This document shows, in pieces, positions 9,241 through 49,356 of a stretch of DNA of 64,000 bases (its first letter is position 1; every line of letters begins with the position of its first letter). The translations under genes and the position numbers were made by a program. A model generated the notes under the pieces. It ran no database searches. It had not been told where the DNA came from and saw nothing but the letters and a program-made list of their open reading frames with translations. The stretch lies in contig OZ260664.1 of NCBI GenBank assembly GCA_965285935.1, forward strand, positions 45,694,001 to 45,758,000. Direction: 5' to 3'. Source of the DNA: Ophelia neglecta (Eukaryota).

Positions 9241-9260
9241 GGGGGGGGGGGGGGGGGGGG
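9241..9260 (+). repeat. Poly-G tract (G20), potential G-quadruplex
   Basis: 20 consecutive G. Confidence 0.9.
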
Positions 9261-14919: not shown

Positions 14920-15150
14920 ATCCAGTTGTCATGACTTTGACTTTTGATCAGTCCAGATCGGGTTTATCTGTGAAATTTCACCTGAGATATTACTGTAAAA
15001 TCCATCTTACAAGAGCCAAATTAAGATGTATGGCAAAACCGTGTCAAACCAAGATGGCCGTGTTGACTATTCTCAGAACTGCCTTCTTCAGTGAGAAACT
15101 CTTGAATGGTTCTGTTTTACATATATAGGTAATAATCCAGCTTCTTATAA
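14920..15150. repeat. Degenerate interspersed-repeat fragment (TGACTTTGAC / CAAGATGGCCG motif type)
   Basis: Motifs CATGACTTTGACTTTTGA and CAAACCAAGATGGCCG resemble non-autonomous repeats common in mollusc-like genomes. Boundaries are uncertain. Confidence 0.35.
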
Positions 15151-15596
15151 GGCCCTGAATTTTTTTGTTTTCATTATCTAATTATTTGAAACTGTAATTC
15201 TCTTTGCATGTGTATTTTATAAAGGAGGTTGAAATTATCTAACGATAAAAGATTTTATAAAAAAGAATTTTCCAGGATGTACCATATGTACTGGGAATGG
15301 GCCAAGAGCAAATGCTGTGATATTAATAGAAGTGTACAAAGAGGATACATAAACAAAAATATGTAATAAGTATTCAAATTAGGTAACATGAAAGAGATTC
15401 ACATCCCCTTGGTCCTGATTTTACTGGGTTCTGGGCCGAGAGCATATGAGGGGAAATCATCCACATACATGTATAGTGTCCAAAACAATAAGGCCAATTA
15501 TACAGGAACAAACCAAAAGTGTCATGTCTGAAACCCAGAGCTGTATGTTTGAAAAGAAAATCAGGATCAGCACAAGCCTTAGGCTTATAATCAAGC

Positions 15597-15660
15597 AGAA
15601 GATGATGATGATGAAGAGGATAATGGTTATAATGAAGATGATGAATGTGAATGTGAATGA
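15597..15660 (+). repeat. GAT/GAA low-complexity tract (reads as an acidic peptide in one frame)
   Basis: GAA GAT GAT GAT GAT GAA GAG GAT AAT GGT TAT AAT GAA GAT GAT GAA TGT GAA TGT GAA TGA. Confidence 0.55.
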
Positions 15661-18600
15661 CCAACAATTTTAAGAGTGTGGTGATGACATTCAGTGTGCT
15701 GTGGACTAGCTACAGGTGTACTTGATTTACAAATGACCACTTGTTGTTTAAGCTGCCATCGTCACGCGTGGAGGGTACATACCAGTACTGCATGAAACAA
15801 AGACAACATTACTCTAATCATTGTGTTCATCAGCTTTTTGTGACTTTCTCTAGCTCAGACTGATCCTACTGTCACTTAACACTTTAAATTTATGTAATGA
15901 GCACCATTTTAAATTGTCAAAATGGCTACCAATCGGTGAACACGAACTACCCGGTAGTGGCAGAGGTTGGAGAATAAATGTAGGAGGATGGTTATCATAA
16001 TGGTAGTAAGGTTTGATTCATGTCACCAGGGTCAGGCCTGGCTATACCTGTGATGAAGAATTAGGACCAGGGTTAGGAATGTTTCAGAGTAGTATTCTCA
16101 AAATATACCTCCACCAAACCACTTATTGGTAAAAGCCATGAACATCTATGGTGTCCATGGACAGGTCTCTATTTGCCGTTTTTAGTTTTTGAAGTTAGGT
16201 AATTCTGGCTTGTGATTAGTCACTAGCCGCCCAGTATGCTCTAATCTATTGCACCTTTTCTTGATGAGGTACAATTAAGATACATGCTCTTTCAGCTCCC
16301 ACACAGTTTGCAGTGATCTAACAGCTGGCACATCTCAGTGTTCTGTGATAGATCTTTGTCCATTAATCACCCATAATGATTCAGTGAATTATATCAATAG
16401 ATCAGAGAGTGGACAGCCAGCTCCCACTCAGACACCTAGTCCACAGAGAGCAAACCTACTTCATCACTGGCTACATCTTTGATCATGAAGAAAGGTATCT
16501 TTTACTCATTTAGAGCATTTTGTTTGTTTACCCAGTTTCAAATATTTATATGTTCAGAGCAATGGTATTGTTTAGAAAGTTTTTATTTCTCTGAATATTA
16601 AACATAATATTATATGACTGAGCTCATGTATTTAAAATGAGAAAACATATTGCTTTACTGTGAAACTGAAACAGTATTGAAATGACATTGAAAGACATGC
16701 CCTTTCTGGCAGATCTAACTAAATTGTGAACTGATGTTTCAGTGATCATAATGATCTCTACTATGTTGTGCTAAGTGTCTTCGTGAATGGGGGCATTGGG
16801 GCATCTTCATATTTGAAACTTAAGCATAACTCCACTTTCAGTGTGCTCATGCAGTGAAACGTGCAATTAATAAGCCCTATAAACATGTCTGGATGCCTAG
16901 TAATATAAGAAATATCCTTGAGAATTTGCCAGTTGGTTGAGAAAGACATTATAGAAGCACCTCGTTGTGTCAGAGAATGATTGAAAGAATAAACCTACTG
17001 ATGAATAGAACTACCAGTGGGACTATCACGCAGAAACCGTCAATTCCTGCTATACAGTCAGCTTCAGCAGGCAGTGGTCATAAACCAGTGTAAAGTAAAT
17101 GACTCATCTCTCACCTTACAGTCACCCACACAATATTTATGGCCAATGAGTGAAACTTCAAGTCAACAGTCTGCTGGTTTTATATACATAGAATGACATT
17201 TAGTTGTAAAAGTGAATGTTTATAAGATTTATAAATGTATTTTATAATAACTTGTTGGCATTTAATGTACTCTCCCAAGGTGAGTAGCTGATCAGTTCAT
17301 ACAGAGCAATTATTTTTAAAAATTGAACTTGTGGAAAATTCTCCAATAAGATGAATTCATTTTATATAATATATAAATGTGCTTGATTCGGAAGGATAGG
17401 GCATATGGCTATAATAAATTGCACTAAATACTGGGTCTAGGAATGAGAATTGGTCATATATATATTTTTACATACAGGTGAGGTTTTTGTACAATTTACC
17501 CCCAAAATGTTATATTTTTACATTTTTTGCATTTTGCATTTTTCTGAAAACAAGCTAAAGAGAGTATAGTATGGTATGGGCCATCCAGTGACACGTCATT
17601 TGATACCATTAGCTTCATAAGCTCAATACCCACCTAAATAATTACTTAAATGAGGCCAGATCATGTCTACTCGTACATTCATCCCATACCTGGAGAATTT
17701 GATTTACGGTGGGACATTTATGGCGACAGTTTTTGATCTTGTTGTGATCAGTGGACAAGTCACTGTATTATTGCCCATGGTCACAATTTTGGTTAACCAC
17801 TAGAAAACCTGAGAAATTAAGTATCTTTCCATCATCCTCACTTCAAATATATTTACTAGTATTAGCCTTAAAAATATATGGATTATACAAGAGGGAATAC
17901 AGTACTTCCTGGATGCAAGCCTTTTCTTTCAAGAATGGAATATAACTATTCAATTTGATGAATGTTTTTCTTTGTTTGCTGGGTATCCATTCCCTTGTTG
18001 TCTGTTTACTTGGCAAGATTAATGAAATGAATAGTTGCATAGCCAATTGATTTAATCCTTGCCGATCTATCCATGAGTTTAATATATAAATGATCATCTA
18101 AAGAGACTATTGGAGCCATCCGCGTAGACTGGATACATTTTCTTTAAATGTAGGTCCCTTTCGCTATTAAAATAATTTGCTCAATTTAGCCCTAAGCATC
18201 CAAATGAACCTTTCAAAGATATTTCTGCAAGTGCTAGGGTCCAAAGATGGCACATTTGGCTTATTGGCAAGCCTGACCAACTACCAGGCAAATCACCATC
18301 AATCTCAGCCAGTGGCTGGATAAGGCATCGTAAATCTAAACCCCAGCTGATATGACTGTAGAGCAGGGCAAGGCATTTTTCCAGCTTCAAGTATTGTTCC
18401 ATTCATGTTTGGTAATTGATATGACCCTATTCATTTGTAGAAGTTGCACTTTGGTTGAAAGATCAAGCTATCTTGTCCATTAGGCCTCTAGCTCTGTGAT
18501 GTATCTTATTGATTCTACAGCAGACCTACCCAGGGAAAACACTGAACATTGTCAATGGTAGGTGGTAATTAATAGACCAAGTAGCCAACAAGTCCCGCTG

Positions 18601-21151
18601 GATTTATCTACTAAATGGTGCTTGAAATTGCCTGTAATTCTATTCAAATTTGTTTCAGCGTAGTTATTATTGATAATTATATTGAAGCCGAAGGGAAGTT
18701 GTTTTGTCATGTAACCTCAGCTGTGTTCTAGGAAAGCCACCTAAGGAAGCGCTGATTAAAGAAAGTTAATATCTAACAATATGAACGGTGTGCAGCGTAA
18801 GGACTGATGTGAATCCCATTTTTGTATGGTATTGAATTTTTTATGTGCAATGTACAGTTTTATTATATCTGGTATTCCCATTTTCTGTCCCTACATTCTA
18901 TTATTTTCCTGGCACGGATCTTAAGTGTTCAAGTTACGTGGAGGCGTTTGGAAGGAAATCATTGCCTGTGATGCAATAAGTACTTCTGTATTCAAATTTC
19001 AATTGAAACATTCAAATCAAATAGAGGCTGCAGTCTAAGAGAAGAGTGTTACCTATAATGTGATCCAAACCAAAAATTATATTTCATTTTTCCCTCTTTT
19101 TTATGCACACAAACAGCAAAGCTATTGAAATTGAACATCAATTATGAGTTCCTTTGCATGACTGGAACCTGGGTGTGACCTATTCAGGAGAAGAGAAATA
19201 CTCATGAATTCCATACATGACATTTCCATCTGAGAAATCAGATTATGTCTTGCCAGTCCTGTTATCTCAGCTTCCCAACTGAGGTTCTGTTCTGTGCCTG
19301 ATTTGTTTTATACTGTGGAAAACATTAACATGTCCGCTGCCAACTGGCTGCCTGCGGATGGGCTGGCTGACTATCTTAAACCCCTACTCTGCCACCATTA
19401 GCCTGTCTGCTGCTAATCTAGCTCTCTATCTTTTTGGTCTAAATCTTTCTAATATCTCAAGATTTGGTTCTCTTTGCCCATTGTACTTAACATATATGCG
19501 CCTTGTGGATCAGACAAGTGCAGTCCATTGACATTGACAGAATGTCTTTAGTGGAACATTCATCTCTGTATTTACTAACCATGGACATATTCAAGTGTAT
19601 GCTAGCTTCAGTCTGTTTGCTTTTGACCTTTTCCTGACATTGCTAGGTGCCTCAAGTTGAACTGATACAAGACATGTTCTGTCAACTGTGATTTATTACA
19701 GGAAAAATATCACCTATCGTTCATCAGCTAAGAGCTTATAATAGCTATATGACTGAAGCTGCTCATTTAGTTTAAAGGAAACAAAGAGCAGCTATAAATA
19801 TTTTCTCTTACATTAAAATGCAATTTCATCATTGATATTATCAATCAATGCACTTTGCTTTTCCTTAACATCTATCATGCTGCAAACGAAGTTAGACAGC
19901 TTCTATTACTTTGCACTACCAATAAATAAATACACAAGTACATTATGTCCATTTATGTACATGTATATATCTCATGGACATACACTGTATCAGTCATGAT
20001 AAAAGACGGAACGGGGAAAGGGAAACGGTTGAGAGAATGACGAATGATACAAGACAGAAAAACCCAATTTTAGCACTTAATTTCGTAATACTGGTGGAAG
20101 TGCCTGCTACCTCCTGCTATGAAAACATACAACTGCCTTATAACATTTTAACACATATGCTCCTATATGCTTCTTGTTAACCAGACAAGTACATTGCATT
20201 GACCATAACAAAATATCTGTAGAGGAAAAGTGTCACCTTTTGTTTTTCTAAACATGCATCCTTTGTAACTGTCACTAATAATGTATTCCATTCAGTATTC
20301 TGCTTTACTCTTTTACCAAAAGGGTATACCTATAGGGTATTCCTGTCTCTGATTGGCTAGCTAACAGAGCATACTGGCCTGAATGCCATGGAATCCATAT
20401 GATGTGATTCAGAATGAGGCTGCAATAGGTAGCCAGGAGAATGCTACCTACATGTACATTTATTATGGTATATAGATATATGCCTTCTTAGCCTATGAAG
20501 TACGTTTTTTCTAATTATAGTCTATTTTTTTTCCACAAGAAAGTATTTAAATGTGTTTAGAAATCCATATATTATATATTATATGTATGTCTCCTATTTG
20601 CTTAATTCACAATTCACTGTTATTTCCATTTAACACATAAAAACAATTGATTGTATACCAGGTATTCAGGACTTGAGACAAGTACACAACATTGAATAAT
20701 TTGTCGTTGCACATAATAATATATATGGAGTGGAATTTATAAACACATGCAGTACATGTAAATATATGACAAGAATCTAGAGTGTGTTCATGTGCGTGGA
20801 GCAGTGAATTAACTATGCAAATTGAGCAACTGGGCTGCCACCTTTTCTGTACTGTGACGCTTCCCTATCAAAGGCATCATTAAATATCTGAAGCCCCAGA
20901 CTAAAGAGCTAAGAGACCACAATGCAAAGCAATATGTTAGACCCAGCTGCTCCAAAAAAAATATTGACAAGAGTTTGATTGAGCCGCTCCAGAATGAACG
21001 CCGCCGACAATAACAAGCACCTTTTTGGGGCTCTTTTTATAGACAAGAAATATAAATGTGTGGAGTATTATTATTTGATCAGCAGGAGAAGAGTATAATT
21101 TTGGTATACATTTCTTTACTGCAGGACCAACCAGATTTTGGGAACTCCTGG

Positions 21152-21388
21152 CTAATATTGGACTTACCAATGAGAAAAAAAAAATCTATAGTAGCAGTAG
21201 CAGGCTATAAACAAGCCTTTATTTGTGAATTTGTGTGTCACTTTAAGGTTAATGTGAACAATAATTTTGTCTGATATGCTAACATGTCACCATACTATTC
21301 AAGAAACTAAATCTTTACCTCTGTCTGCAATGAGAATTGAATATATTTAATTTTGAATGGTACAGGATATATTCCTGCTTGAATTAAA
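21152..21388 (+). repeat. Left arm of a diverged ~235-bp inverted repeat pair
   Basis: Aligns with the reverse complement of 22690-22918. Shared blocks include CTAATATTGG..CAATGAGAAAA, ATTTGTGAA(T/C)TTGTGTGTCACT, TTAATGTGAACAATA..TTTGTCTGATA and TGGTACAGGA..CTTGAATTAAA. Confidence 0.85.
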
Positions 21389-22689
21389 TGAATTAATTTT
21401 AAGAAATAAATTCAGGCAAAAGATGAAAAAGAAAAAAGTTCATCTTTTATTTTATTTCATGCTCAGAACACACATTTACTTTCAAGTTGCTGTGGCATAT
21501 TTTAGAGGATAAAAGCATCTCTATCATTTAAAATATTACAAACTAAATCGCAGGGATTTACAAGAACATATATACATGTACTACATGTAATTGTAATGTG
21601 GTTATTTACTAAGTGATATCTTTAGCCATAACCATAGTAAGTTGAGAGTATTGCTCTTGCTGTCTGTGCTATCCTGAGTTATCCTTACTGGGCTGAATGG
21701 TAGTCTGTAATCAGAAGAGCCTAGAATAATCCTTCATAGTAGTTTTTTTGTTGTTGCCAAATTCCCGACCATTATTTTCCTCTTTATACTGGCAATAAAG
21801 CCTTGGAGCCTTAGGGCAGGCACTGATAGTTGAATGGTATACTCCAAATGTATTCTCTATAATTAAGGTCCTGATCCCATTGGAAGAATTCTAATACAAG
21901 GAATTATCAGCAGTCACCATGTCAGCGCTGACAAACCAAGCTTTCTGGGAGTGTTCAATATAAATTGATGATTCGGTTTTGTATTGATGCAGAACAGAGG
22001 GAGTACAGCTAGAAAGAAATCTAATGGTAAAAAGAAGTCAATTTCTTGCTGCAATCATTCTTTCTGTGAGATCAAAGCTGTGTGAAAATGGCATCCCTGT
22101 TTTCATTCAAGCATTATTCAGACTGAATCTTCCCAATACAGCTTGTGCACATTAAAAGAACTTTTCCTTGTCCATGTTTAGTTGAAAGAATAGATTGATA
22201 GTTGATCATGGGAGGAGTGATGAATGTACTGGCTCACTGGAAGGAATAAAGTCTAACAAGTGTTTCCAATTAACCCATCATGGTTAAATATTTGAGCACA
22301 TTTACAAGATATTGTATATGAAAATGCAGGCTACTTTGATGAGTTGAGGTATATTTCAGGAGTCCGGCCTCCTGTTTTAACCTTCTTTAAAGCATTTTTT
22401 AAAAGGAAAGGCTGCATAGAAGAACTATATAGTTACGAGCAATGCTTGCGCAAGTGTTTAATATGGAAGCTGGCAACTATGGCTTGATAGCCTATTTTAT
22501 ACTGTCAGTGCCATGAATGGTATGACAAGATGAAGGAAATAATCAGTGAAAGCTTCAACTTCACTTGTTTATTTAGGAGCAAATGTTCCATTAGCTGTTT
22601 GATTACCCTTGATTACTACCAAGTGTCATCATGTTTGTCCAACACTCCAGAACATGTGTACTTTATGATTAAGGTACATTATAATGATT

Positions 22690-22918
22690 TTTAATTCAAG
22701 AGGATTATTTCCTGTACCACCAATTACCATATTTTTAATCCTCATTTTAGAGGTGCAGATCATGTTTTGTTGAAAAGTGAGTAAACATATTTATCAGACA
22801 AAAGTATTGTTCACATTAATTTTGCAGTGACACACAAGTTCACAAATGAAGACATGTATATAGCTCGCTATATCTGCTATTGATTTTTGGTATTTTCTCA
22901 TTGCTAGGCCAATATTAG
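22690..22918 (-). repeat. Right arm of the diverged inverted repeat pair
   Basis: Reverse complement matches 21152-21388. The ORF track shows the same in its translations: FICEFVCHFKVNVNNNFV vs FICELVCHCKINVNNTFV. Confidence 0.85.
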
Positions 22919-25900
22919 AAAGGTATGAGACAGATAGATGGATGAATATTGCCAGCATAGCTGGAGGATGTTCATTACAACACTGGAACTGACAAATTGA
23001 TGGAGGACTCCATTTCCTGGCCATGTACCCCAGTCAAATTGTACAACTCTCCAGCCACTCACCCCATTGACATCTGAATTTTTAATGGTAAAGTGTTTGG
23101 TTAGCACTTTATAGTCATTTTCCTGTGCTTTGGGGGTTAGACCCTCTGTCAGAACTCATGCACCTGCCATATTGACTTCTAAAGGGCCTTATATTGTGTT
23201 TTATTACTGAACTTTGTTCAAGGGTAATTGTAACAAGAAATATGACATCACCTGGAAGGAGTGGCAACAATATATCTTAAATCTGCCGTCATGGGTTACC
23301 AGCATGATTGGGACATCAGACAGGCCATGACTCAAGTGGGTCAAGTCATGTCAAGTGTCTAGGGGCTTTTACTGGCACACCTCCGCCATATTCACCATGC
23401 AACCAGCCCAGAATTTCTATAGAATTTATTTACCTTTTTCTGATATGTGAACTTCATATCTCAAACAGATTTGGTGGTTATTATTTAAAAGTGTTGACCT
23501 AGCCATAGGGAAGGCACTAATGTACACGAGGGAAGCTTAATGCCCCCTTTCTTTGCCGTTCTCCTGTGTTGTCCTTGTAGCAGCTGCTGTTCAATGCTTA
23601 GAGGAACATAGTGAATAGCAATGGAATGTAGTCAGGCAATCCGAGCATCTATTTTCTTGCTGAATGCTTTGATGCACAGGCAACTACCACAGTTTCTAGT
23701 TGTGATAATTCCCATCATCTCGACAGGAAATGGTAATACAACTTGATGTTCGCCATTGATCTGGGAGCAAAGAGCTCATTGAGGGCTAAGCATTGAGCTA
23801 ATTACAAAACTCAACATGCAACCAACCTCTCCAAAGTCATGCCTTTCACTCTCATATATAAAGTCCCTCTCAATATTTCTCTTCTGTCCTTGGTATGATA
23901 GTAAATGAATCAAACTAGCTTCTCACAATACAAGTAGAAGAAAAAGACATGCAAAAACATAATCAGTTTAGTAGTTTGTTGCTGTTATTCTAAGTTCCTG
24001 ATCATGCAATTTCAGGCCGACAATGAGATTGCTTTAATGCCATGGTGTAGTGAACCTCTTCAGTCTCCACAGGTTAGACATCCAACAGCCAATCTGTTAC
24101 AAGAATCTGCTGCTTGTTTTCACATGCTTCGGTAGGTCGGTTTCGCTCTGCCTAAAAACAACTACTATACTGATGAGGCACGTGCCAAAAAGAAACAGCT
24201 CCGCTCTGCTGCTGATCACACGCTTTTGGTGGTGCCGCAAACTGGATTAAGGACATTTGGGAACTGAACTTGGCCTGTAAATACCCAGTGTTTGTGAAAT
24301 GCACCACCCTTTAAAATATCAGGCAATGGAACAGTTAGCCTTAACTAGGACAACTTATTTATTCAAAGCTGTTTCTAACAATTATTCATTTGAAAAAAGT
24401 GGAGTGATATGTGTTGAGGTTTTTATCGGTGGTTGGCATGGCCAACTGCGGTAGCTAGAGATACTACAAGATTGCCATTGCATACCTGTACACTGGACAC
24501 CATTTTAGTCATTGCTAAGAACCTCAACACTGCGAAACAGACTTATTATAAAGTATGCAATAAACATCTCCAAACTGGTTTCCTATCATCCATTTCCTTT
24601 GACTGTGGAGGCATATTGTCGATGCTATGGGGTGGACTTCAAGTTCCTAATAACTCCTCTGGGCATGAGTTCCTTATTTACTATCAGATCTATGTACATT
24701 TCTGTAATAACTTCATGGCAGGTGCATTTAAAAGAAAAATTTACAGTATTGGAGCTACGTGCTAAGAAAGAAACTGTGAAAAGCATCATTAAGAACAAAC
24801 TCGCACATTTTTCTTATTTCCTAGAGTTTTTACTGCCCGTCCCTATGGAGGTTACCTGTTATCAACAAAGTGGCATTGTAGCGATGCACACACAAGCCAC
24901 AATTCCTCAATTTTGGAATAATTCCCTGATAAGCTTCATAAATGGTGTTCTGCTGTCTATTATACTGTATACAGAATGGTTTTTTCACCAGAGCTGGGAA
25001 AAAACTATGAAATTTAGGACAAAGTACTACAAGGCTATTTAGTTTTCTAAGCTTTGGCAGCTTTGGTTGTTTTTTAATTTTTAACAGAAATCATCCTCCG
25101 GAACCTTTGGAATTTTGTTTGCAGAGCCAGATATAATAATGATTTGGTAGCCATGAACAGTTAACTTAATGTTATTGCTTGCTACATGACTCATGTCAAA
25201 ATAGCAATATTACTGTATTTTCATGCCTCATTACAAATGGCAGAAGGTTTTGCTTATCATATGAAGTCACATTTCAAAGTGCACAAGCTTTCTTCAGAGC
25301 ATCAAGTGATACAAATTTCAATATTTGAGGGAACGGTGCTCCCGCTGGTCAGTTCTTGGTTTTTAAATTGGTGTATTAATCCTCCTTCAACACCAAAACC
25401 CAGGGCACAACTGGAATAGAATGATTAGCCATAGGGGACTTGACTCCCAGCTGTCGCCATTGTGGTGTTGGTGAAATTAAAGAACACAGTCTTGGCCAAT
25501 CAAAGACCAGCATTTGAAGACGGGGCCCCTGTCAGCCAATGAAAGTTCTGTATTTGAAAAGTGATTTCATGCCAGTGGTAAAAGCCACTCTCAATGAGTT
25601 ATGAATCCACAGTAAACAAAAAAATGTACCATGCACATGAGATGCCATTAACTACTAATTTTTATCATTTAAGCTTCAAATTGCATTTTATGCATTCTGT
25701 TTTTTTCTTTTAAAATGCCAATGCAGCATTAATATGTCAAGATAAGTTTTTTTCTCTCTCATGAGCACATCCACATGCCAGTTAATCAGGCATCTAAGTG
25801 TGTCTCACCTGGTTTCTGCCAATACTTCAAGAAATGCTGATGCGATTTCAATAACAAAAATGTTGGTGGTATTTTTTTGCCTATCCAGGATTGTCAAATC

Positions 25901-26318
25901 TGTTTACCTTGCGAAGGTCATGGGCCTTGGATCTTCAAGGTTACTAACAGACTTCCATCAAACGTTCTTTATCAGACAACTTTCGTGAAAAGATACCAAC
26001 ATTTTTCATCTGAATCATTGGAAACTGCTGCTATGAACCTTTTCCAAAACTGATTAAATATAAGAGATTCAGATCTACTGTCAAATGTGAAGTAAAAAGG
26101 TATAATATAAAAAATGTGTTCCAGTCAACTATGACCTTCTTTTTAAGGTCCTACAGGGAGTTTTTGCTCTCTTGTTAAAACAGACTGAGGATAGAAATAT
26201 CAGTCATAGGCCATCTAATAACATCTACTGACATTATCATCTCTGGTTATTTATCATTTTTATGATAATTGATGTTTTTTTCCATGTTACAACTTATTGA
26301 TATATGCCAGATGTTCAT

Positions 26319-26393
26319 GTGACCGTTATCTTTTTTTTTGCAGGTAAGAAATTGTTACAAGTGAATCACCCACCCATATCATAGTGTGTAAGT
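26319..26393 (+). other. Candidate recursive splice site (ratchet point) with 44-nt cryptic RS-exon
   Basis: GTGAC branch-like motif (26319-23), then TTATCTTTTTTTTTGCAG|GTAAGA (junction 26343/26344) and a second donor GTAAGT at 26388. The 44-nt segment has stops in all three frames. Confidence 0.7.
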
Positions 26394-29300
26394 ATGTTGA
26401 AAGTCATGGTGAATTAAAAGAAATATCCAATCTTTTAACTTTAAGCTTAATATATTGCAAAACCCCATTATCATCTCATTGACTACTGTACATCCACCTA
26501 ATAAACTAGTATGTGTTCATGGAAGAGCTTTTGGCATTGAATCTTCACAGTGGTTTGAATATAACTTTAAAGTTACAATATTTTTGGAACTGGATAATTA
26601 ATCTTTAGAGCATAACATGTTAGTTCCATCTATTCCATACCATCTCCACATATTATATAATCAAACAAGAGTGTGCACAATTAAGAAATAAAAAAATATT
26701 AGAGTAAAATCTGATTGCATTTGTCTGTAATCATCCGTGGAAAAAATGTTATGTCCCTCCTTATGATTGATTATAAAGATGTCTGATTTGGTAGTTATAC
26801 AGCCTATATAGACATGAAGGAGACCTGGTAGTTTTAAAACACTCTCACAGTGTGTCATTCTTTTACATTTTAATTTAATTTCTATTGTGAAATTTTTTAA
26901 TATCCATTTTGTTACATAAACAAGTGCCAACATGACCATATTTTGACCATGTTGAAATCCTTGTCCCTGTTGGATTTTCTCTTTTTCTATACAAGAAGAG
27001 AAAAACTTTCAGTCCGTAAAGAATAGCGGAACAACTGGATTGTAAAAAGTACAAATGAAACAACTTACAGTATACTGCCCAATTGCAGTCATCAGGTCTA
27101 CTTCTCACTGTGTGCATGGATCCATCAAAATAAATCTCCCTTTACCTTTGGATAAAAGAAGGCAATGGAGTGCACTGTTGGAGAATCTAGCTCCCAGCAG
27201 ATTAGGGGATTGGGAGATATTATGCCTCGCAAGATGTTTAGCCGCAGATATCAAAGGATTTGGATTATTCTCTTTTGGTTTCCTTGGCTGGCTTGGTGTA
27301 TGGATAACCACGAGTGACTTAGTGTGTAATGTCAGGAAAAAGGATGAAGCACACTGTAGTAGTCTGAAACATTAATGCATATTACCTTGTTCTTTGAAAG
27401 TATAATACTCAATTAGGCATACCAGTTGCAGCACTAATGAAAGATGGAAATTTGTTTGGAAAAATAATTGTAGCTATGCTATATTAATTATATCCCCCTA
27501 GTAACCAGAAACCAGTTAAAAGAAAGTATAAGCTGATTTCCTACCATCTACTACATGTATATGTATATGAACGAGGCTCCTTTAGTTACAGAAGGACTGG
27601 TCTTCTTGTGTTTACGTAGGTCACCTTCAATAACATAATGTTATGTCAGGGTAAACTTAGCGGCTGAGGTGCTTTCTGTTGCACTCAGCCCAGTAGTCTT
27701 AGACAACAAGCTGTCTGGTTTACCTTCCACAGCAATGGCTACAGTAATGTCATGACCCCTAGGGGTCAGTGCTGAGCTTTCTATAATGGTGTCTAAGGGT
27801 AGATTACAGCCAGTGTGATCTTCAGTATGGTCCTTGGCTCTCCAGATGGTCATTGACCATTGATCTGGGCAAGCTTTATTAACCCAGACGTAAGTCTGCA
27901 TTGACTGTCATGGCTGCCTATTAAGATAACATTCATAGTTGTGCTATCATCCCTGATGCTAAATCTCCTTGTGTGTCATCTACATCTAAATGAGCAGGCA
28001 CACCTCAAAGAAACTCAAGCTGTCCTTTAACTTCGCACAGGAAATATGAGCCATTAATATTGTGTATTGTGCTGTCCCTTTAATATTAGTACGCCGTGAT
28101 GTCTACTCCTGTTTTCAATATGTTTGGCATTTGCCAAGTACATTTTACATGGACTTCCTATCACTAAATCAGCAGTTAGCCTTTGTGGACAAGCAATGAA
28201 ACTCAATTAAAGGCATCCTCCCATTAGGAACTAAATCAGTAGATGTAAATGTACACAGGCTATCACTCAATTCATTCAAAACAAAGGATCTCTTTTAGTT
28301 TTTTATTCTTCAGGAAACCATGAAAATAGCTTCAATGTGCATTGTCTGAATTCTGGATAACAATTTCTATATATTTCTGCATGCATTAGGCTGAACTTGT
28401 TGGCGAACAGTTTTAGTTATATCTTGACATTTGATCAACAACTCTCAATTTGCTGATGACCCAAGATCCAAATGGCAATGTGCTCTACTTGGCAAAAATC
28501 AGCAGAGAGTAAAACAATCAATCACTGCTGTAGCTCCATGCATAGGAATACATTTAGGGTTATGAATGACTCTAAGATGATTGCATCAGACAACATAAAT
28601 CAACATTGCGGCTCAGTTTGCCCAGCTTAGAATGTCCTGGGGATCTCCATCACCCGGATGCTGACTGAGATGGAAATGAGTACCACTGGGGGACGTAGTG
28701 AGCCCAGATCTCTGTGTCTGTTGACAGGTATCAGTATGCCACGGCCGTCTGCCTGTGAGTCCCCACTGACACGGGTCCTCTGACACGACAATCTGGAAAG
28801 ACCATGTACGCTGGATGAGAAAACTGTCAAATAGATTCTTACCAGTAGAATCTCTGGCTGCTAAAGCCCTATGTATCTGGTTGAGGGGTCCAAGTCGCTG
28901 TAATTGGGTATTATTGCCACTTGGACCATACTCTGGGGCCAGCCCCTTAGTAGAAGCGTGTTTGGCTGTCTTTAGTGCTCTCATTTTTGGTTACTAGATG
29001 CAATTAATGTAGCCAGAGCTAAGGTTTGGTGATGGACTGGCCTTGTAGAAGCCCTGCTTGGTGATTTGGAGAAGATTGTTCCATTTAGCAGTGAGTTGGG
29101 GCCAGCAATGGCATGTTGTCAGCGTGTTCATCAAGGGTTTTATTGTTTTCACACCACTTACATCACCTATATTGCTCTCTAAATCCACCATTTTTTTGCT
29201 CGGACTACCAATTTGGATGAATATGTGTTCCATTACATGTATTTGCGACCCCCCTTTCCAGTCCAGTCCAGTCTTTAGGGTATTAATCATGCACCTGTCC

Positions 29301-30389
29301 ATCTAGCATGGTAATCAATAAGGATAAATATGTTCAGGCTTGGCAGCAAATAAAATTAGATGACTAAGTCAGTAAAATTGGGAAATATAGTAGTGAACAA
29401 TATGTTGCTGAAAATATGTCTACACACGTAGACAAAATGCTTAAAAGTAATCAGAATTCTCTGGAAGACTTGGTATTAATTTTCATTTGCTGATATTTTA
29501 TGGAGATTATTGACGAGATCACACTGCTTAAGCACCATATAATCTTTAGTTTAATAACCGTGTCCACATCATTCTGAGCATAACATGACAATCTATTCGA
29601 TGGTTTTGTGAGGTTTATGAAGTAATTAATGAATGGCTTACAAATTTGGCCAGCTTAAACAAAGCAAATACAAATTTGCTTTTACTGGAAGATTTGCATT
29701 TATCAATCCCCACTACTTCAAAATTGCAAAACCTGAGTGTTCTTTTCATATTAGGACATGCCTGATTGGAAACATCTACTAGGATGAGCAATAACACTGC
29801 TCCTGTGGAGAGGGCATTTTTAGCCATCAAATAGTATGGTGAATATATGAGCTGAAAAAAAACAAAACCTGTCAGGAACATGTTTTACAATGGCAGAGTG
29901 TCTTATTCTGTGTCATCCAGATGGAGTTATTCTCTGCCCTGGTGGCCCTCATCCTTCCCATCGGAATGTCCACAAAGGTCCTCCAGGAGTCATTCTTCAG
30001 CTCCTTGATTTTTGCTCCATGTCTCTTGTTTCAGATGGTGTGGCTGTTTGGAAAGCAAGAAGAGCATGTGGCAATAACCACTTCACTACTCACAACCATA
30101 TATTCTTGAAATGGTCCCTGCATGAGAATAATCCTCATGGCACTGTTGTTCTGGTGTTCTTTGAGTGATTTGCACAACATCTACCTCTTATTAAGTTTAA
30201 AAATATTCCAACATTTTCTTGCAGACATTCTTCAATCAGAGTTGCATTTTTTTTCCTGAACAAATTATTTCAAGCAAAATGAAAATGCTACTATTACCTC
30301 CTTTGAATAATGAATTTACTTCGTTGTTTAGCTCATGCTTTGATTAGGTGTATGTAGCTTAACAAAAACACCTTAAAAGATTATTATGG

Positions 30390-30461
30390 TGACACATTAA
30401 CACATTCATTAATGTGTCAGAACCTATTAGTGGACGACAGAGTGATGGTCTGTCCGTCCAC
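30390..30461. other. Two adjacent stem-loops
   Basis: TGACACATTAA-8nt-TTAATGTGTCA is a perfect 11-bp stem (30390-30419). GTGGACGACAGA-7nt-TCTGTCCGTCCAC is a 12-bp stem with one bulge (30430-30461). Confidence 0.6.
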
Positions 30462-33110
30462 ATTGCCGAGTGTCATCCATTTTCTCTACACAGCCTTGGT
30501 ATAAGGCATTATGGCTGGCGGTGATATGAACGCCGAGATCCATGTTGCATGTATCACAAATTATGAGTTATTTACCTCTGGGAGCTGTCTTATGTTATTT
30601 GATTAACAAGCTGTCATTTTCGGTCCACATGACGTAGGGGGACGGAAATGAGGCATGGCACATGTAGGTCTGTTCTGGCTAGGGCACAGTTTGGCAGGCT
30701 CATGAATACAGCTGGATTACCGCTGGTCCCTCTGGTATATCATTTACAGGTACTTCTTGACTTGTTGTTTATAGCCACCTCAAGCAAGTGAACTTTTAGG
30801 TGTATTTGACATATAAGTCACACTCAAATCTTATTTTTGAAACACTGGTGAAAATATTAGACTGAAGAGAGTTAAGTAGCTCAACGCTATTAAACGGATG
30901 TATGTTTGGTCTGTCACAAATAGATTTATCACTCCCCTGGTGTTTCCGGCTATTTCCCATCCAATATTGTCTTTTGCGTATTGTTGCTCCCAGTTTGGAG
31001 TAAAGGATCTTAATGATGATTGGCCCTTATGGAATGAGCCATTTCTGCATGAAAATTGACCAGGATGGATATGTGTTTCCTTTGGAAACAAACATGTCTG
31101 ACATTTACCGGGTGTAAAAAATACCACTGGGTCGCACAACAGTACTAAATTTCTCAAACTTTGCATTATCAATTCCATGCAAGAAAAAAGATTGTCCAAT
31201 ACATGTACAATGTCAAGTGTATATATCTCTGGGGTGACAGTGTGTGTTCAAGCCTAACATTTGATGACCAGTCCGTCACAGTAACTACACCCAGCGTATG
31301 CCAGTTGAGACATTGTCAGTTGGGTTCTTGGTCAAGGGAATCACCTCTTTGCTACACAGTCGTGGTTCCTGCTCCCAAGGGCACCATGGTTTGCTAAGCC
31401 ATCAAATCCACCCTCTGACCGGTTTTCCTGATGAATGCTGAGTTTATTATAATAGCCCAATAAAACTGCTGCATCTAGTGTTACTGTTGCCTGTTAGAAC
31501 AAAGAACTATTTGCCATGGGGTGACATTTTTCTTTTGTTAGTATGACTAGTGCAATGGGAACCTCATCTAGAAGTCCAGAATACTAAAGTAGTGATGTTT
31601 ATTGAACAAACATTTGCATGTATTGATATGCACTGCAAGAAACTAACCACCTTTAGTCCTTTATAGTGCAAGTTTAAATATTGCTGCCTGAAATGTTTCT
31701 AGTTATCAGGTTGAGCTGTTGCTGTGACTACAGTTGACCTTGGAGCAGACAGACAGGTCGTGATAGCCCGACATGAATCTCAGCTAATGATTCATAGATT
31801 CTCTGCAATGGTTTACACCATCATGCACGAGACTGTCATCATTGATCATTTCTGTTACTTTCTGAGAATCCTGTTTAGTCGGCTAGCTGGCTGCATAGCC
31901 CAATGTGTAGCAGCCAAGACCCTAAGACCTGATTCCACATTAGAGTGGGTAGTGATGCTCATATAGTTAGTTTGGTGGCTGGGGTGAAAAAACTCCCTCA
32001 ACCTTCCATTATTGCTGGACAGAAGCTGCAGGGAGGCAAGCCTTCAGGAGGTGATAAGATAATACCAAACAAGATTGGCCAGCTGATACCCTCCATGACT
32101 TCAATCTGAATAAAATCCTCCTGGATACATAGAATAACCATCATGAGACACCCCTTGTGCCCGCCATTTCTCTTAAGTAACTGGGCAAGGCCACAATGAA
32201 GGATGTTCATAAGCTGAATACCATTTAAAATGCAACAAAAAGTCAGATAATTTTTTGTATTTGGAATTTTGTTATGTTAAGTAGTTTTTATTTGATCAGA
32301 ATTTTCAAACTTCTAAGATGTTGTGTGCAAATTAATATTCATCTCTTGGTGAGAAAAGATGGTGTATTCTTTGTCACTGGTTGATTGGCATTGCAAATGA
32401 AGCAAAAGACCCACATGGCTGTAGGAGGATTGGAGCATGTGGGACAAAGTAAGAACCGGAATCCACTTGTTTGAGGACAAATGTGTTTCAACCAACAGAG
32501 TAACTGAAGCTTAATACATGTACCATCATGATCGGAAGCTATCTCCCTAGACTTGGAACCAAAAATGTTGCTGTATAGCTCACTAAGATGTGTCGCGGTG
32601 CTGGCACAAACTTGTTGGTCTTGGTGATTTTCACTGCTAAATATGCCTGATGAATAATCACAAAACTTTCCATTTCATCAGGCATTTGACGTGGAACAAG
32701 AAAGGATTCTGAAGGTGATGACATGCTTAAAGGGTCATGATGTCTCAGCTGATATCATAATTTTGAATGCAAGTTTTTTCCGTTATCCAAATTCTGTGCT
32801 CATCATCAGTCGTAAAATCCATTTTTGGTCAGGGAGCCTTCTTAATTTTCAGTTGATGACCTTGCATGTATAATTGTTTTGTTAGGAGTAAGAGGGCATT
32901 TAAATTTTGCAATTTGCATCCAATTTGCCACATTGTAAAAAAGTCTTGATGAAATGGCTAAAAATCATATTATAACAACATTTGCCTCCATTGGCCACTT
33001 GTCTAGATCTATAGATGTAGGTTTACACTGTGGTTTATTATATTTTCCGGTGTTATTTGGTGCTAGCCTTGTGTCACCCATTATGTGTCATATGATGTCA
33101 CAGTTTAGCC

Positions 33111-33232
33111 AGGTAGGTCGCGACCTACCTTGGGCCTAGGATTGCTGTGGTTGAATCGCAGGTCTTGACCATGTCATGTTCCGGTGGTGTCAGTTCATCA
33201 TGGTCGAGACCGGCATAGCACCCGCATGCGCC
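33111..33232. promoter_or_regulatory. CpG-rich palindrome/hairpin island (putative cis-regulatory or structured RNA element)
   Basis: Perfect 20-bp palindrome AGGTAGGTCGCGACCTACCT (33111-33130). A 13-bp stem GGTCTTGACCATG/CATGGTCGAGACC with one G-U pair (33161-33211). CCGCATGCGC motif. CpG is locally dense. Confidence 0.35.
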
Positions 33233-33959
33233 GCTAGTGGAGCAGGTGTCGTCTGTTAGGCTGGTTGGATATGTACAGAGCTAGTGGGGAGAGCCTCCCT
33301 GCATGATTGATTCCTGGACTGGCCTCACATTGACTGACTTCCATCATGGACACCTACTTCAGCCTGCACAAATATTAACTCTACATGGGAGCATGGCCTT
33401 TATTAATATTTCCCCTAAATGGAGAGATTTGTTCTAGAATGGGCCAGAACCCAGTTTGACATTTGATATCTTCACTTGACCAGTGCCATATTTAGTACAG
33501 CTTTGCCGCCAACCTCAGACATAGGTGTACTAATTTATTTTTTGCCCTGGAATGAAAACATGTCTGAAAAAAGTGCAAAACCACAAATTTTTAATAAAAA
33601 GGACCAAATCAATGTAATTGTGATGTGAAACAGTATATTAAGTACATGTGTACTTGGTTATTTGATTTATGGGCCACTAAGACTTGGGTGCTCTCCTGCC
33701 AAACATTCTGTGGACGTCCTCCGGGATCAGCCATGACATACCAAGTAGGGAACTGAGGGGGATCACTGCCAGGAGGATGATAGCAGACGTCAACAACAGC
33801 CATTATGTCAGCTTTGTAGCTAACTTGCCATTAGCTATAAAAAGTGAGCAGTTGTAACCCTGTCATGTGTGCTATGATTGATAAGTTGCCGCTTCCTATG
33901 GGGGTATTTCTACTACTCGCCCAATTGTTCGGAATCTACTTGTTTTTTTCTGTGACCAG

Positions 33960-34070
33960 CTATCTTGGCATTTACCCAGTTTCTACACAAAGAGCTATAA
34001 AATACTTTATTATGTCAAGTTATTCCAAACTGGACTGATTTTAGTCATTAGCACGATCTCTAGCAGTCAG
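33960..34070 (+). other. Possible 111-nt cassette exon (weak)
   Basis: Acceptor TTGTTTTTTTCTGTGACCAG| and consensus donor CAG|GTAAGT. Length is a multiple of 3 with one open frame (LSWHLPSFYTKSYKILYYVKLFQTGLILVISTISSSQ). No recognisable homology. Confidence 0.2.
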
Positions 34071-36958
34071 GTAAGTTTTAGCTAAATGATTGAAGTGTCC
34101 CCGATGTTGGGAGGTTGTGTAGCATGCATACTCAGGAATCTCCCATCGGCTCAATACATTGTCTGTATTCTAATTCCATGCTGCCTTCAATGTCTCCAAA
34201 CTTCACCTTCAGCTTTACACCTTTTTTTCTCAAATAGATGAGTTTCCAATGTTGAAGGGAATACATAGGCAGTGTGCTTGTTATTCTTTTCCATACTATA
34301 AAAGGTTCAATGTAAGATTTACAGTACTAGTAGATAACTAATTCACAACATAAGTATTATATAAAGTGTAATGTTAGGTAAGCCAGTAGCCTGCTTCATG
34401 ACACAGAACAGCTTCTGTAATAAATACTCATGTAAGATATAATTACCACAGTATCAAGATGATGTACATGTGTACCTGAAGACAAATTTACCTATTTCTT
34501 GCAACAATGAACGTGAATAATAAAGGAAAAAAAAATGTTAGGCTGGCATTAATCAAGATCAAGAGAATGAAGCGAAATAATTGCTGCAAAATTTATGATA
34601 GTATTGAAATGCATATTTAATGTTTGACTGAGTTTCTCTTAATTGGAGCTTTTCAATCAGTACTGTTGAGTGGGGAAGTATTATAGGGGAACAAATGACT
34701 TTCTTGCAGACTACTTGGCAGTGAAGGCAAGATTAGTGAGAGATATGCTAACCTGTCGACCACTAGTTTTTCCTGAGTGGAGCCTGCTGAAAAGAGAGGT
34801 GAATGAGCTGAGATGGTTGCAATTTGTCAGTGGTGGACATTTATGGAGGCCCTGGCAATGAAGTCCATGGCCTGCCTGCGACCCACATGTGGCTCCTTGT
34901 GCCACAGCCTTCAGCCAACGCCACCCACAGCCATCCTCGGCAACCTTTCTCCGACCCAGATAATACTAATCAGCATCACAGATTAGCCTCTTAATGGGCT
35001 TAACCTATTGTTGTTGACAGGAGCATGTCCAAGTACCTATGCTTAGAGCCATGGAGTGCAGGCGTCTACAATCCTTGTAGTGGCTGGTAATGAAATAAGG
35101 CTTGCCACAATCCACCAACTCATAAAGCCAGACACTTTATTGGCCTTGCAGTTGCTTTTATTTTTTCCTCATTTTTGAAACTAATGCAAAGAAAATGTCC
35201 TCTACCTTGTGGGATGCACAGTTTGTTAACAAGCTTCACAGTTATACTCATTGCTATAGGCTGTCCTTGACTATTTCTGTCTGTTATGTGCTAGCAGCTG
35301 CCATTGCTTCATTGTTATGCTCGAAAGCTTTGGCAGATTTCTCCGAGGAGTCCAGATCAACTTCAGTCTGCGGAGGATCCACTGTAAATTACAAGTAATA
35401 TTGGCAGACCCATTTTGCTTTTCTCTTTGCGCAATGATGATTTCCAAGGATATGCTGTACCCGTGAAGGCTGTCAGAGGTGTAGACATTGTGTGTAGATG
35501 TCCTTATTGGTAATGCAGCCAGGACAGGCCTCAGGGGTGTCACATGACGTGACACAACATGCATCCAGACATACAGGTGGATAGTTCTCACAGGCCCTCT
35601 AGACTAATAGACAGACAGAATAGTTGACAAGTATTCTTCATAGGTTCCAAAATACATGATAGATCTTTATTTTATGGCACACTCTCCACTCTGGAAGTGA
35701 AGATATATTTGAAAATGATGTTATGTATCCCAGGTGGAATTACTACAGATTCCAAAACTGTCTGAGGATATTTATGTACATCTACTATAGATGAGCATTG
35801 ATTTGGTGTAATCGATGCTTGTTTAAATCAGGAGAGTATATGAGCAGATGGATGAGTAGCTATGTGTTAAGCTGCAGGACCCTGATATTGTAAACCATAA
35901 AGTGGTGAGGGCCAGGCCAGCCATTTGGCCTGATGCAAAGCAGACAATCCCATTTAATGGCTTCCTGGTGTTTAATGGTGGCACTGTGATTTCCCTAAAA
36001 TTGGACAAATTGAAGTCTGTTTGTAGCCCAATGTAACCACACAATAGAAATGATTGATCCAGAAATTAAGTTTCTTAGAGTAGAAAACCTGTGCTATTAA
36101 ACAAGTGAAGCAAGGCCACGATTCCCCCTTCCCCGCCTTGACAAATGAATGTCTTGGCAGGCCCAGAATAGAAATAAGCTTCCCTTCTACATACAGGTAA
36201 TGCTGATGTGAAATCTGCCATGGAATAATCTATGGAGATCCCTGCACAAAACTCCCATTTCTCTCATACATCTTCATAACAAGTGATGCTGGGTTGAGGA
36301 GATAAGGTTACAATGGCTTTATTCTGATACCAAATAATGACAAATCTGAACTCATCTTCTGAAACTGGAAAACCACCCTTGTGGTGCATGCTCTCCTCAA
36401 TATAGCTCTGTGGCAGGCACACTGAATTATGTCATGTGCATTGAGAAGTTCATGGAGAGATGTAATGGCATTGCTCTTTTATGGTTAGAATGTTCATGTA
36501 CGCTGTTTGTATTCTGATGATGCATTCTGTCCAAAATTACCAGAAAATGTTATAAACTACATAAATAAAACAGGAATGTCTATTTTTTAAAGATTTTTAT
36601 GGGCAGTTAGGAGGAACATGCACTAACTAGGTCAATAATGAAACAAATTTTTATTGTCATAGACTGGACTTAGCTGTATTCCCCTGAGTCTTAATTAACT
36701 CTACTTTACAGGTTAGTAATGAAAATTTGTGAGGTAAATGTAGTCCTATCCTTTGTCCTTCCTCTGCTGTATTCATTAGAGAGTGGATTTGACATTAATC
36801 AGGTGGGGAGAAGTGTGATAAGTGACACATCACGCCCAATTATTGAGCACTCTGGCCATCATTAACCCAGCTAGTGTAGACTTCATCAGACCCTAACTAG
36901 AATGTTAATGTACTACATAGTAGTACTTGTTCCCTTTCACTACTCTCCTCACACTGTA

Positions 36959-37136
36959 TAATGAAACCTGCAAATTAAGACCACCAAAGGGACTGGAGAA
37001 TACTGATCTGATTTTGGAGGTTGTCCGTTTAGACAGGTTATTTTACATTGAAAGTATACAGCAGCGTCCTCATATTGGTGGTCTGAATTAACAGGTAGTC
37101 TGATTATAGAAATTGCCTTTAAGGCTGGTTTCACTG
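36959..37136 (-). mobile_element. Tc1/mariner-superfamily MITE, copy 2 (opposite orientation to 8001-8144)
   Basis: TA|TAATGAAACCTG ... CTGGTTTCACTG|TA. Its reverse complement shares AATAACCTGT.TAAAC.GAC.ACC, CAGTATT..CCAGT.CC and CAGGTTTCA with copy 1. Confidence 0.8.
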
Positions 37137-40100
37137 TATAGATAGATATTCATTTATTTAACCAAATTGGATGTGCACAAGTACAACCATGAATGATGAA
37201 TACAAATACTTTTGTTAAAGTACAAGAAATGATAATAATATTCTATGCAAAAATGTACTTTAATAAGAATTTAACTGATTGCCGCTAAACATCAACACAT
37301 TTGAAATGAATAAAGTTTATAGCTACATGTACCTAATACCTATGGAATATAAGCTAACATAGTCATTAGCCATTCTCAAACTAGAATCAAAATACAGTCA
37401 CTGAAATATACCAGTGTACTCACAGGAACCTGAATTGGTTCCTTGCACAATCAATCATCGATTACATAATGACAAAATTGTTGAATAACATACAAGTAAG
37501 TGTAATAATCCTTGCAATGTGTTTGAAATGAAGCTACTGGAAAATGTTTTGGCTGGCAAACACTGTGTGGTTCATGGTTTTGTCCCCTCAGATTGTTTTT
37601 CCCTGATCTGTTTTGTCTTACAACATCCTCCCCGAGGCTCTAACTCGGGTTTTACAAGCCTTTTATATGCTGTTTGGGCTTCCTTTATACCACGGGGACC
37701 TATAGCCATGTATGGTTGTCACATTGCACTGGAGCACTGCAGGTCTCCATTAGAGAACCAGCAGGAAAGAGGAGGTGAAGAGAAATAAAACAGGAGGCCA
37801 GCGCACAGCTGGAGAACTCTGGAGGATGTGAGCAGACAAAGTCGTTAGCTGGAAATCTCTCCAGACTACTATTGTCACACACCTATTTTAGAGGAAAATT
37901 ACTTTATTGCTGTTTTTTGTGCGACTTATGTATGTTTATACTGTGCTGTATAGTCCATACATGTCCCTCAGCGCACACCCGTGATTATAAGTACAGCTTC
38001 CTTTCTTGATAACAAAGAGTTGGTGTCGAAAATGTAAACTTTCTTGGGGAACTTGGACGGACTGGATATACATTCATATTTGTACAGTATACACACATGC
38101 ATTTACATACATACGTGCACAGGTACAAACTATTGTGCAGTTACACCATGCTTGAACCCGGCCCACATGTAGATCCTGGCATACAGTGTGGTACACTGGT
38201 CAAGCAAGCTGATGCCCTGAGGTCGACAGGTTTATGATTTTATCAGATATTTACACAACAGGCTGCCCATACAAAAAAGGTCACATGACATATGGATCCT
38301 ATATACGCGTACAGGCTGAGACACACACATAGCCAGCCAATCAGTGACATGAAAATTCTATAGGTATATGATAAATGTACATTTTACGGTGAAAGGTTTG
38401 ACATAAAATTCTTCGGAGAAGAGGAAAGAAAACTTATTATGAAAATAGAAGAAAACCACTGGCCTTTGAGCTTTGGTTATATTTTTTCAAACTTCATACA
38501 CCTCTGTGAGGTTAAAGTGATACACAATTGTCCTTGTCTTAGTAAATAATTCTTACTTTGAATTGAAACTTACATGTTTATTTCAGATAGTTAATTAAAG
38601 AGTAGGTGTTAAATTTAAGGCCTAGGTTTAACGTACACCTGGGATGAGTTTCCTTAGCAGGCAGTCACATATATCAATATAATATTGTGATAAGTTGTGG
38701 CCTGGTTCCTGGCCCTGTATTTGCTGGGCAGGTGCTAAAGTCTTAAAGGAACTGAAGAGTTTAGAAACAAAATGGTATACATCAAAGATTCCTCTGCATT
38801 GGGATTTGTGGTAAAGTAATTTGGTCTTAGGGATGTTTTTCTTCAGGAATGGCAGGTACATGAAAAGGGCTGGCCTATCTTGCAGTGCCGAGTATAGTAA
38901 TTTACAGTCCGGTGAGGAGCCCACATATTTACAGCTATGAGCAATTTAGGGCAAGGGATGGTGGAAGAAAGTACCATTCAAAATGAACTAAGAGCTCACT
39001 GGAATGAATGTTTTGCTAACTCTGGGGCTGATTTAAACTCAGATCCATGTATGTGTGTAATGTATTTGTAGTCTTCTATGCTTAGAACCAACTTTTGTAT
39101 AAATGTGTTTCTCTGCAAATGGATATTTTTTACTCCACAGTAGCTGATGAAGGATAAACACATTCTGAGCAAAGTTATTAAATGAAATTTACAGCACTAT
39201 CTTTCCAGCTGATTAGATTAACCATTAGTCTTATGGCGTGCATAGCAATTTGTAGATTGGGATAAAACCTGTAATAATCTTAGAGATTCCTCTGTGATCC
39301 AATCATTGGGACTCATATTTCACTTTAGCGTTTCTCCTGCCTTTCCTACATTAGATTTAATGCACTCACCTCTATCTACAGACATCTGTAATAATAACCT
39401 ACAGCCACTTTGTCTGCTGCTTCATAAATAATACCAACTGAACTGTGACAGAAATCCTTTTTTGCCAGAGATGCATGATAGCATCCGTTGCTCTGGTGTG
39501 GTTCAATTTTTCTCCTGCTATATTTCAGAGCTTGGAGTTTTGTGGCCAAAATGAGCAAATACACCCAGCGTCGGGTTGTATGATAACATGACTAGCCATT
39601 CTGGGTGTCACACAAGTCGTGTAGCTGTTCATAAATCGGGCGCATTTTGGCAACCTTAATTATTAGACTTTGGTATTGGAAGAGATTTGCGGTGCCTAGT
39701 CAGGGTCAGAAGACTTAGATTTAAATGTCCTCTCCTAGTCAAAGCCTGGTAACAAAGAACCAACAGGAAGGCATTCTGTTACCTACAGATAGACCTAAAT
39801 AGATCAGTTTTATCCAATTACATGTGTGAACAAGAGTTAAAATCCACTCCTAGGAGGCTGTGATGTGGCCTCTTTTTGCCTTACTGATAGTTTTAAGTTG
39901 ATTTTGAGAATTATTAGTAGGCTCTAAAGCTCTGTCTGGTGAGGTCAGTAGAGGGGCTAGTAAGATAAATGACTCCTGCAGATACATGACCTCCCAATAC
40001 TCCTCAGGTGTTCAGTTTTAGACACCCATTGATCATTCTATTTAGTTCAGAGCATAAGCACAAGACCATGTATGCTAATGAATGTCAGTATAAAGGTATG

Positions 40101-41044
40101 GGTATATTCTTTGGCAAGTCTTGAAAATTCAATAATTCTGGTTTATAAAAACTGTTTATATTGTTTAGGGTGAGTGTTGTGCCATGGGCCCAGCCAGGCA
40201 TGATGCCAGCCCGCTCCATGGTACCTAAGGTCATGTACCCCGCTCAGCCAGACAATAGCCTCAGCAGGCCAAGTGTCTCCTTTACTCAAACTTATGGCCG
40301 GGGAACGTGCCTATGGTCAATCTGTCAATGTGTTTCATCTACCCAGAGTGTGAATTAGCATCCGAATTCATTCCACTTCATGATCCATGCGCTGTAAAAG
40401 AAAATACTTAACTGGCTGTGTTGATCTAACTGTTTATGAGGTACAGGTACATGTGAGTGAGATGGCTGGTCTTTGGTGATCACTGCAGGCCTTATGCATT
40501 AACTCATCATATCGGCAAATTAGTCCTTCTGATAGTAGTTTTAAAAATGTCATTTATCCCATTATTGCAGTATTTCATCCATTAATTTCATCGTAATGGA
40601 TTAATGGTGAAAAGAGATACTAAGACCGCTAAATGGCTATCATACCTGGCTGGCAAGAGTCAGTGGTAGTAAACTAGTGCAAATTTGATTGATCTGTATT
40701 TGGTATGACGAGGATTTATGTTGCCTCTTGGCCTACAATCTGGAGAGACTACCATTTGCTGGCATACATATAAATGTTATAGCCTCCCACAATTGGCTGC
40801 CAACTCCTCAATCCAGTTCCATCCAGCTGATGAGATGCAAAATACATTATGGTCAGCACTCCCTGGGTGAGCATTACTGCCTTTCATCAGCATGGCAGTT
40901 TTGTGGTCGGTCTCGGTGGTGCTGCTGGGCCATCTGCTGACTTAATTGAGAGCTTTGGAGTTAAAATCTACAGTAAACCCTTGATGTAGGGTCGTTCTTT
41001 AAGTTTTACATTATTGTGCAGACTATCATATTTAAAGTTGGAGT

Positions 41045-49327: not shown

Positions 49328-49356
49328 GGGGGGAGGGGGGTTTGGGGGGGAGGGGG
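49328..49356 (+). other. Canonical G-quadruplex motif
   Basis: G6-A-G6-TTT-G7-A-G5. Confidence 0.8.

Follow-up and report, generated by a model that had tools for sequence, protein, structure and literature searches.

At positions 26319..26393 of the stretch of DNA analyzed here (64,000 nucleotides, called the window, which provides the positions below unless a contig is named), a strong splice acceptor runs directly into a strong splice donor, and another donor follows after 44 nt. This arrangement raises a question: Is it a ratchet point of recursive splicing, as a sequence-only reading of the window had proposed, or an exon of some other kind, or an accident of composition? All the coordinates given in that reading were correct when the sequence was rechecked, and the elements that they delimit are listed below (a slash marks the splice junction).

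26319..26323, plus strand: branch-point-like GTGAC, whose A (26322) precedes the G at 26343 by 21 nt
26331..26343, plus strand: acceptor of the first putative ratchet point (RS1), T9-G-CAG, with T9 at 26331-26339 and AG at 26342-26343
26344..26349, plus strand: donor half of RS1, GTAAGA, predicted to form AAG/GTAAGA after joining to exon 3 of YIPF5
26344..26387, plus strand: candidate cryptic exon of 44 nt (RS-exon 1), reading VRNCYK and then a stop in the host frame
26388..26393, plus strand: downstream donor of RS-exon 1, TGT/GTAAGT, with GT at 26388

The site therefore has strong 3' and 5' splice sites in juxtaposition (a pyrimidine tract and YAG/GTRAG), as well as a short candidate cryptic exon ending at a donor whose 8 intronic positions all agree with the consensus. 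The nearest AG upstream of the acceptor is that at 26309-26310. The locus is single-copy in the genome of 762 Mb and lies in none of the 23 tandem-repeat rows of the window, for the whole length of which no Rfam match was found. The 44 nt contain stops in all three frames as originally described, one per frame (TGA, TAA and TAG), and the TAA is part of the exon's own GTAAG. Three-frame stops are also present in 26% of 20,000 random 44-mers starting with GTAAG, and hence they constitute no evidence for function; 8 of 30 comparable sites elsewhere in the genome show them too.

To which gene does the site belong? Mapping by tblastn with five named YIPF5 proteins over 264 kb around the window places the whole of it inside one intron of a YIPF5 gene, which has a second gene nested on its opposite strand.

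1..64000, plus strand: interior of the YIPF5 intron between coding exons 3 and 4, which is 103,776 nt long and of phase 0
C7:45681310/11, plus strand: donor of this intron, AAG/GTAAGG, 12.7 kb before the window
C7:45785086, plus strand: acceptor of this intron, 27.1 kb past the window
C7:45678951, 45679625, 45681276, 45785087, 45786710 and 45790848, plus strand: YIPF5 coding exons found by tblastn, collinear with named YIPF5 proteins
C7:45688179-45690950, minus strand: single coding exon of an LRR-Ig protein gene nested antisense in the intron, an open frame of 924 codons

The YIPF5 exons splice into an ORF of 254 amino acids, the named matches of which are called 'YIPF5-like', and the other coding introns of the gene measure 0.55-4 kb. 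A YIPF5 tree of 24 rows did not place the protein at the level of phylum; its best pairwise scores were with molluscs and a nemertean, and the named GRHPR matches came from mixed groups. The nested frame sits near the 5' end of the intron and encodes LRR and Ig domains, with an annelid protein as best named match; we take its product to be kekkon-like. The best named matches as a whole indicate a lophotrochozoan. Its start codon directly follows an acceptor-like AG, and therefore an untranslated first exon probably lies deeper in the YIPF5 intron, which probably has its great length because it houses this antisense gene together with the upstream region. ORF and exon scans, which short exons can escape, found no plus-strand coding gene between exons 3 and 4 of YIPF5. 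The intron also contains minisatellites at 11293-13651 (period of 52 nt), 49504-51103 (46 nt), 41045-41560 (54/68 nt) and 63788-64000 (31 nt). Beyond it, YIPF5 stands tail to tail with a second gene of the Yip1 family, which is on the minus strand (C7:45785087-45794812) and is presumably YIPF6-like.

The layout of RS1 recurs once more in the same intron, on the same strand and again within the window.

56106..56124, plus strand: acceptor of the second putative ratchet point (RS2), a long pyrimidine tract ending in CCAG
56125..56181, plus strand: donor half GTAAGC of RS2 and the candidate cryptic RS-exon 2 of 57 nt, reading VSFL and then a stop in the host frame
56182..56187, plus strand: downstream donor of RS-exon 2, GTA/GTAAGT

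RS1 and RS2 split the YIPF5 intron into segments of 39,033, 29,781 and 34,962 nt, which fall within the range of some kilobases to tens of kilobases that is characteristic of ratchet points. Moreover, RS1 is in sense orientation within its long host intron and stands far from the annotated ends, 39.0 kb from the donor. Since the two sites divide the intron into three nearly equal parts, its removal in three steps appears likely, as in long introns of the fruit fly.

How far does this exceed chance? We defined a composite motif, Y8-N-YAG/GTAAG..GTRAGT, comprising the acceptor, the fused donor and the donor downstream. The 103,776-nt intron has two matches to it in sense orientation and none in antisense; the motif was absent from 300 order-5 Markov simulations, and controls from the genome lead to an expectation of 0.0003-0.0006 per intron strand. 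Across the genome the composite pattern has 31 matches, versus 9 when read backwards and 5 when GAATG replaces GTAAG. A loose version of the pattern, with a tract of TTT only, shows no excess (32 matches vs. 37 backwards), which indicates that the signal depends upon a long pyrimidine tract. The acceptor and fused donor taken without the downstream donor give a mixed picture. T9-N-CAG/GTAAG is found 4 times in the 762 Mb, and its backwards control never; Y12-N-CAG/GTAAG has 47 matches, not clearly more than the 41 of a control combining the acceptor with GAATG, many of which are C-runs. From the 47 we removed three duplicates and RS2 itself, leaving 43 strong sites among which a few related pairs remain. 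GTRAGT lies 25-80 nt downstream of 20 of these 43 sites, compared with 27 of 1763 flank windows (1.5%; P = 3e-25), and is absent at that distance from the other 23; a T directly after GTAAG, at position +6, is present in 27 of the 43 vs. 39 of 170 in the flanks.

The matches tend to stand in series along one strand. Of the neighbor pairs that 28 non-redundant composite matches form at distances of up to 200 kb, 11 share a strand and 0 do not, whereas random placement produced at most 3 in 100,000 trials. In five fetched regions, totaling 1.18 Mb, every strong YAG/GTAAG site (19 of 19) has a downstream donor and each region uses a single strand; four of these regions, all but that of YIPF5, had been chosen for having at least two matches, and 6 of the 19 sites were unknown at the time of choice, all 6 of which fit. 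Cryptic exons at 30 non-redundant sites outside the window range from 28 to 80 nt, with a median of 38.5 nt.

The longest series is found on contig C8 (C8:81690107-81898472), where eight ratchet-like sites on the minus strand are spaced 16-48 kb apart, all with AG/GTAAGA and RS-exons of 29-39 nt, and on the same strand as downstream exons for Ig domains; the plus strand of the region has no such site. On C5, the strand of exons for ANF-receptor domains carries three ratchet-like sites at intervals of about 39 kb. This plus-strand region (C5:13983061-14137937) contains several similar exons for receptor extracellular domains, two of them with Pfam ANF_receptor matches, and the three sites lie between them. 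The idea that members of a series are duplicates of one another was rejected, for blastn of their flanks matched the motif region only, bar one match of 22 nt on C8. The region of C9 at 6.94-7.45 Mb contains recent inverted and tandem duplications, each with ratchet-like sites, but its copies were rejected as a test of conservation, being so recent that their flanks are about as alike as the motif.

Other observations concern the details of these series. Four series have a single base at +6 throughout. All 8 sites of the C8 series have A there (P = 1.5e-6 in a post-hoc test, with 9 A in the total of 30), and the series on C12, C2 and C5 each have T at 3 of 3 sites. In YIPF5, where the upstream exon ends in AAG, RS1, RS2 and the intron's native donor all carry a base other than T at this position. 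It is possible that the +6 base is tuned to the upstream exon. Within the C8 series there are two similar candidate first exons of signal-peptide-like sequence on the minus strand (C8:81755475 and 81740123), both ending CAG/GTAAGC, which possibly represent alternative promoters; a further candidate first exon, at C8:81959609, ends GAG/GTAAGA. Three strong AG/GTAAG sites of C5 (at 9.88, 10.02 and 11.18 Mb) share the sequence AGATAAGT about 47-70 nt downstream, in the place of the GTRAGT donor.

The contigs of one sample (X1-X3) permitted a comparison of alleles, the second allele being seen in X2 and X3. From this allele 22 nt of the interval 26305-26330 are missing, GTGAC among them. The branch-like GTGAC of the sequence-only reading is therefore present at 26319 as described but specific to one allele; in the other, a TTGAT (A at 26300) is moved to the same distance from the AG of RS1, as determined by hand from the gap table. 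At 26341 the second allele has T for C, turning CAG into TAG, which is still YAG, and AG/GTAAGA is retained along with the 44 nt and the 26388 donor. The X2 contig has 5 substitutions over 25914-26800 and none within 26342-26410. Considering that only 40 substitutions were found overall in about 2,700 letters, the constancy of the RS1 core of about 50 nt is a weak indication and not significant. No allele differences are listed for RS2 between 56021 and 56292.

The best explanation of these features is that RS1 is a recursive-splicing ratchet point of the Drosophila type with a normally skipped cryptic RS-exon, the first of two in the YIPF5 intron, and we consider this likely from the sequence evidence. 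The original proposal of a ratchet point with an RS-exon thus gains support from the host intron, the strand, the spacing and the genome-wide class of sites with the same layout. Recognition of the 26343 acceptor together with the 26388 donor would define an exon of 44 nt, and exon 3 of YIPF5, ending in AAG, would be spliced onto 26344. This joining would restore AAG/GTAAGA, a predicted donor closely resembling the native AAG/GTAAGG, which would outcompete TGT/GTAAGT, so that the 44 nt would depart with the next segment. A second round at 56124 would follow, and splicing to exon 4 would then complete the removal, with nothing of either site left in the mRNA. Leaky retention of the 44 nt, on the other hand, would halt translation after residue 109, out of 254, and lead to nonsense-mediated decay; inclusion of RS-exon 2 would place the stop after residue 107. 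The statement that the 44 nt cannot be a coding exon holds accordingly in the frame of the host. Duplex energies with U1, a crude proxy calculated with the motif that we take to be its 5' end, favor the rebuilt donor over the RS-exon donor at RS1 (-9.5 vs. -7.3 kcal/mol), but with match counts tied at 8:8; for RS2 the same crude proxy gives -9.5 vs. -5.6 kcal/mol.

Could the same elements mean something else? If the 44 nt were a regulated poison cassette exon, their controlled inclusion would lower YIPF5 via nonsense-mediated decay and they would otherwise be skipped in a single step. The strong acceptor, the full consensus of the downstream donor and the in-frame stop with later junctions downstream of it would all be accounted for in this way. 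However, a plain poison exon does not require GTAAG at its start, and the same layout is found twice in the YIPF5 intron, as many as eight times in a single series and in 31 places across the genome, with unrelated exon bodies and a nearly even spacing that suits segmenting rather than tuning. Also pointing away from it is the absence of AG at -2/-1 from all of the 30 RS-exon donors examined, a figure that comes from sites chosen for their GTRAGT donor. Such a regulated exon is consequently unlikely. The term 'poison-type' in the sequence-only reading describes well the consequence of inclusion, but such exons are as a rule skipped in the fly model, and regulated inclusion finds no support here.

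The site might instead be a pseudo-exon ignored by the spliceosome, either fortuitous or vestigial. The T-run of RS1 adjoins a stretch polymorphic for indels, and repeats or duplicates account for part of the Y12 matches elsewhere, which would fit an origin of this kind; nevertheless, two composite matches on the sense strand greatly exceed the expectation for one intron strand, and strand-coherent series run across the genome, rendering the pseudo-exon quite improbable. Least plausible of all would be a non-coding exon, be it of 5'-UTR or lncRNA nature, of another plus-strand transcript initiated within the intron. The 44 nt indeed contain no open reading frame, and an internal promoter is conceivable; the C8 series contains candidate alternative first exons. 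Yet the scans mentioned above, which may miss short exons, detected no candidate plus-strand coding gene between exons 3 and 4, the nested LRR-Ig gene is on the minus strand, and the GTAAG start would be left unexplained. The 5'-UTR option raised in the sequence-only reading fails altogether for YIPF5 itself, because RS1 sits between coding exons 3 and 4 and hence downstream of the start codon.

The ratchet interpretation can be compared with systems in which the mechanism is already known. According to the accessible text of the relevant papers, the fly model has the short exon defined, the upstream exon spliced to the acceptor of that short exon, and the donor so rebuilt prevailing over the one that the short exon already has (PMC8605326; bioRxiv 10.1101/006163; PMC6224609). 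Fly RS-exons are of about 50 nt (PMC8605326), close to the median found here for the genome set, and recursive segments of the fly average 18 kb with a range of 2.6-63.6 kb (bioRxiv 10.1101/006163), so that the YIPF5 segments of 30-39 kb are longer than the fly mean while remaining within the range. Examples from the same available texts include RP1 and RP2 of kuz (two in about 50 kb), Ubx-RP, Bx and luna, with five in 108 kb (PMC8605326; bioRxiv 10.1101/006163). The resemblance as far as these sources describe it is extensive: Drosophila ratchet points are, like RS1, fusions of a strong acceptor with a strong donor inside a long intron; their RS-exons, like RS-exon 1, are short, end at a downstream donor, which in the fly is the weaker one, and break the frame if included; and there are several per intron, evenly spaced as in YIPF5. 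In contrast with Drosophila, the YIPF5 sites are predicted from sequence in a probable lophotrochozoan, and they lie in a housekeeping gene of membrane traffic that has an antisense gene nested within it.

Vertebrate cryptic RS-exons, such as that of CADM2, also correspond to what we propose for RS1, since the exon is defined first and the rebuilt donor, made in part of the three terminal bases of the upstream exon, then competes with the exon's own (PMC6224609 and PMC8605326, citing Sibley 2015, in their accessible portions). Mammals, however, are credited with only nine fully suppressed sites in long introns (as cited in the accessible part of PMC8605326). The ratchet-like set of the present genome, with at least 31 strict matches and series of up to eight, is more fly-like than vertebrate-like. 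A sense-strand excess of fused acceptor/donor motifs, as in the YIPF5 case, was reported for introns over 50 kb of insects and sea urchin, with ratios of 4-22 in invertebrates (Shepard 2009; PMC2773006); as presented in the accessible text, that study differs from ours in covering 13 species without a lophotrochozoan and in an analysis from which the downstream RS-exon donor is absent (PMC2773006). The available text of a lungfish preprint names flies, mice and humans as the organisms studied for recursive splicing (10.1101/2024.12.11.627982). Our full-text literature searches, whose coverage left out subscription papers, returned no relevant report on recursive splicing in molluscs, annelids, lophotrochozoans or octopus.

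In evolutionary terms, documented cases of recursive splicing come from flies and vertebrates, and predictions extend to other insects and sea urchin. The mechanism is thus not new in itself, and RS1 appears to be well supported as an instance of it by its sequence features. A broader reading, which we advance tentatively as a possibility, would combine a fly-like ratchet system of lophotrochozoans, with stereotyped cryptic exons of about 30-60 nt, with co-tuning in each intron to the end of the upstream exon and with ratchets arising de novo where a nested gene inflates the intron of a housekeeping gene. A clean and strand-coherent ratchet series in this genome would carry the fly architecture, including its cryptic exon, to a third branch of bilaterians. 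If this is true, exon-defined recursive splicing would be common to all three bilaterian superclades, and the YIPF5 intron, belonging to a housekeeping gene and enclosing a nested antisense gene, would constitute a natural test of how ratchets originate during intron growth.
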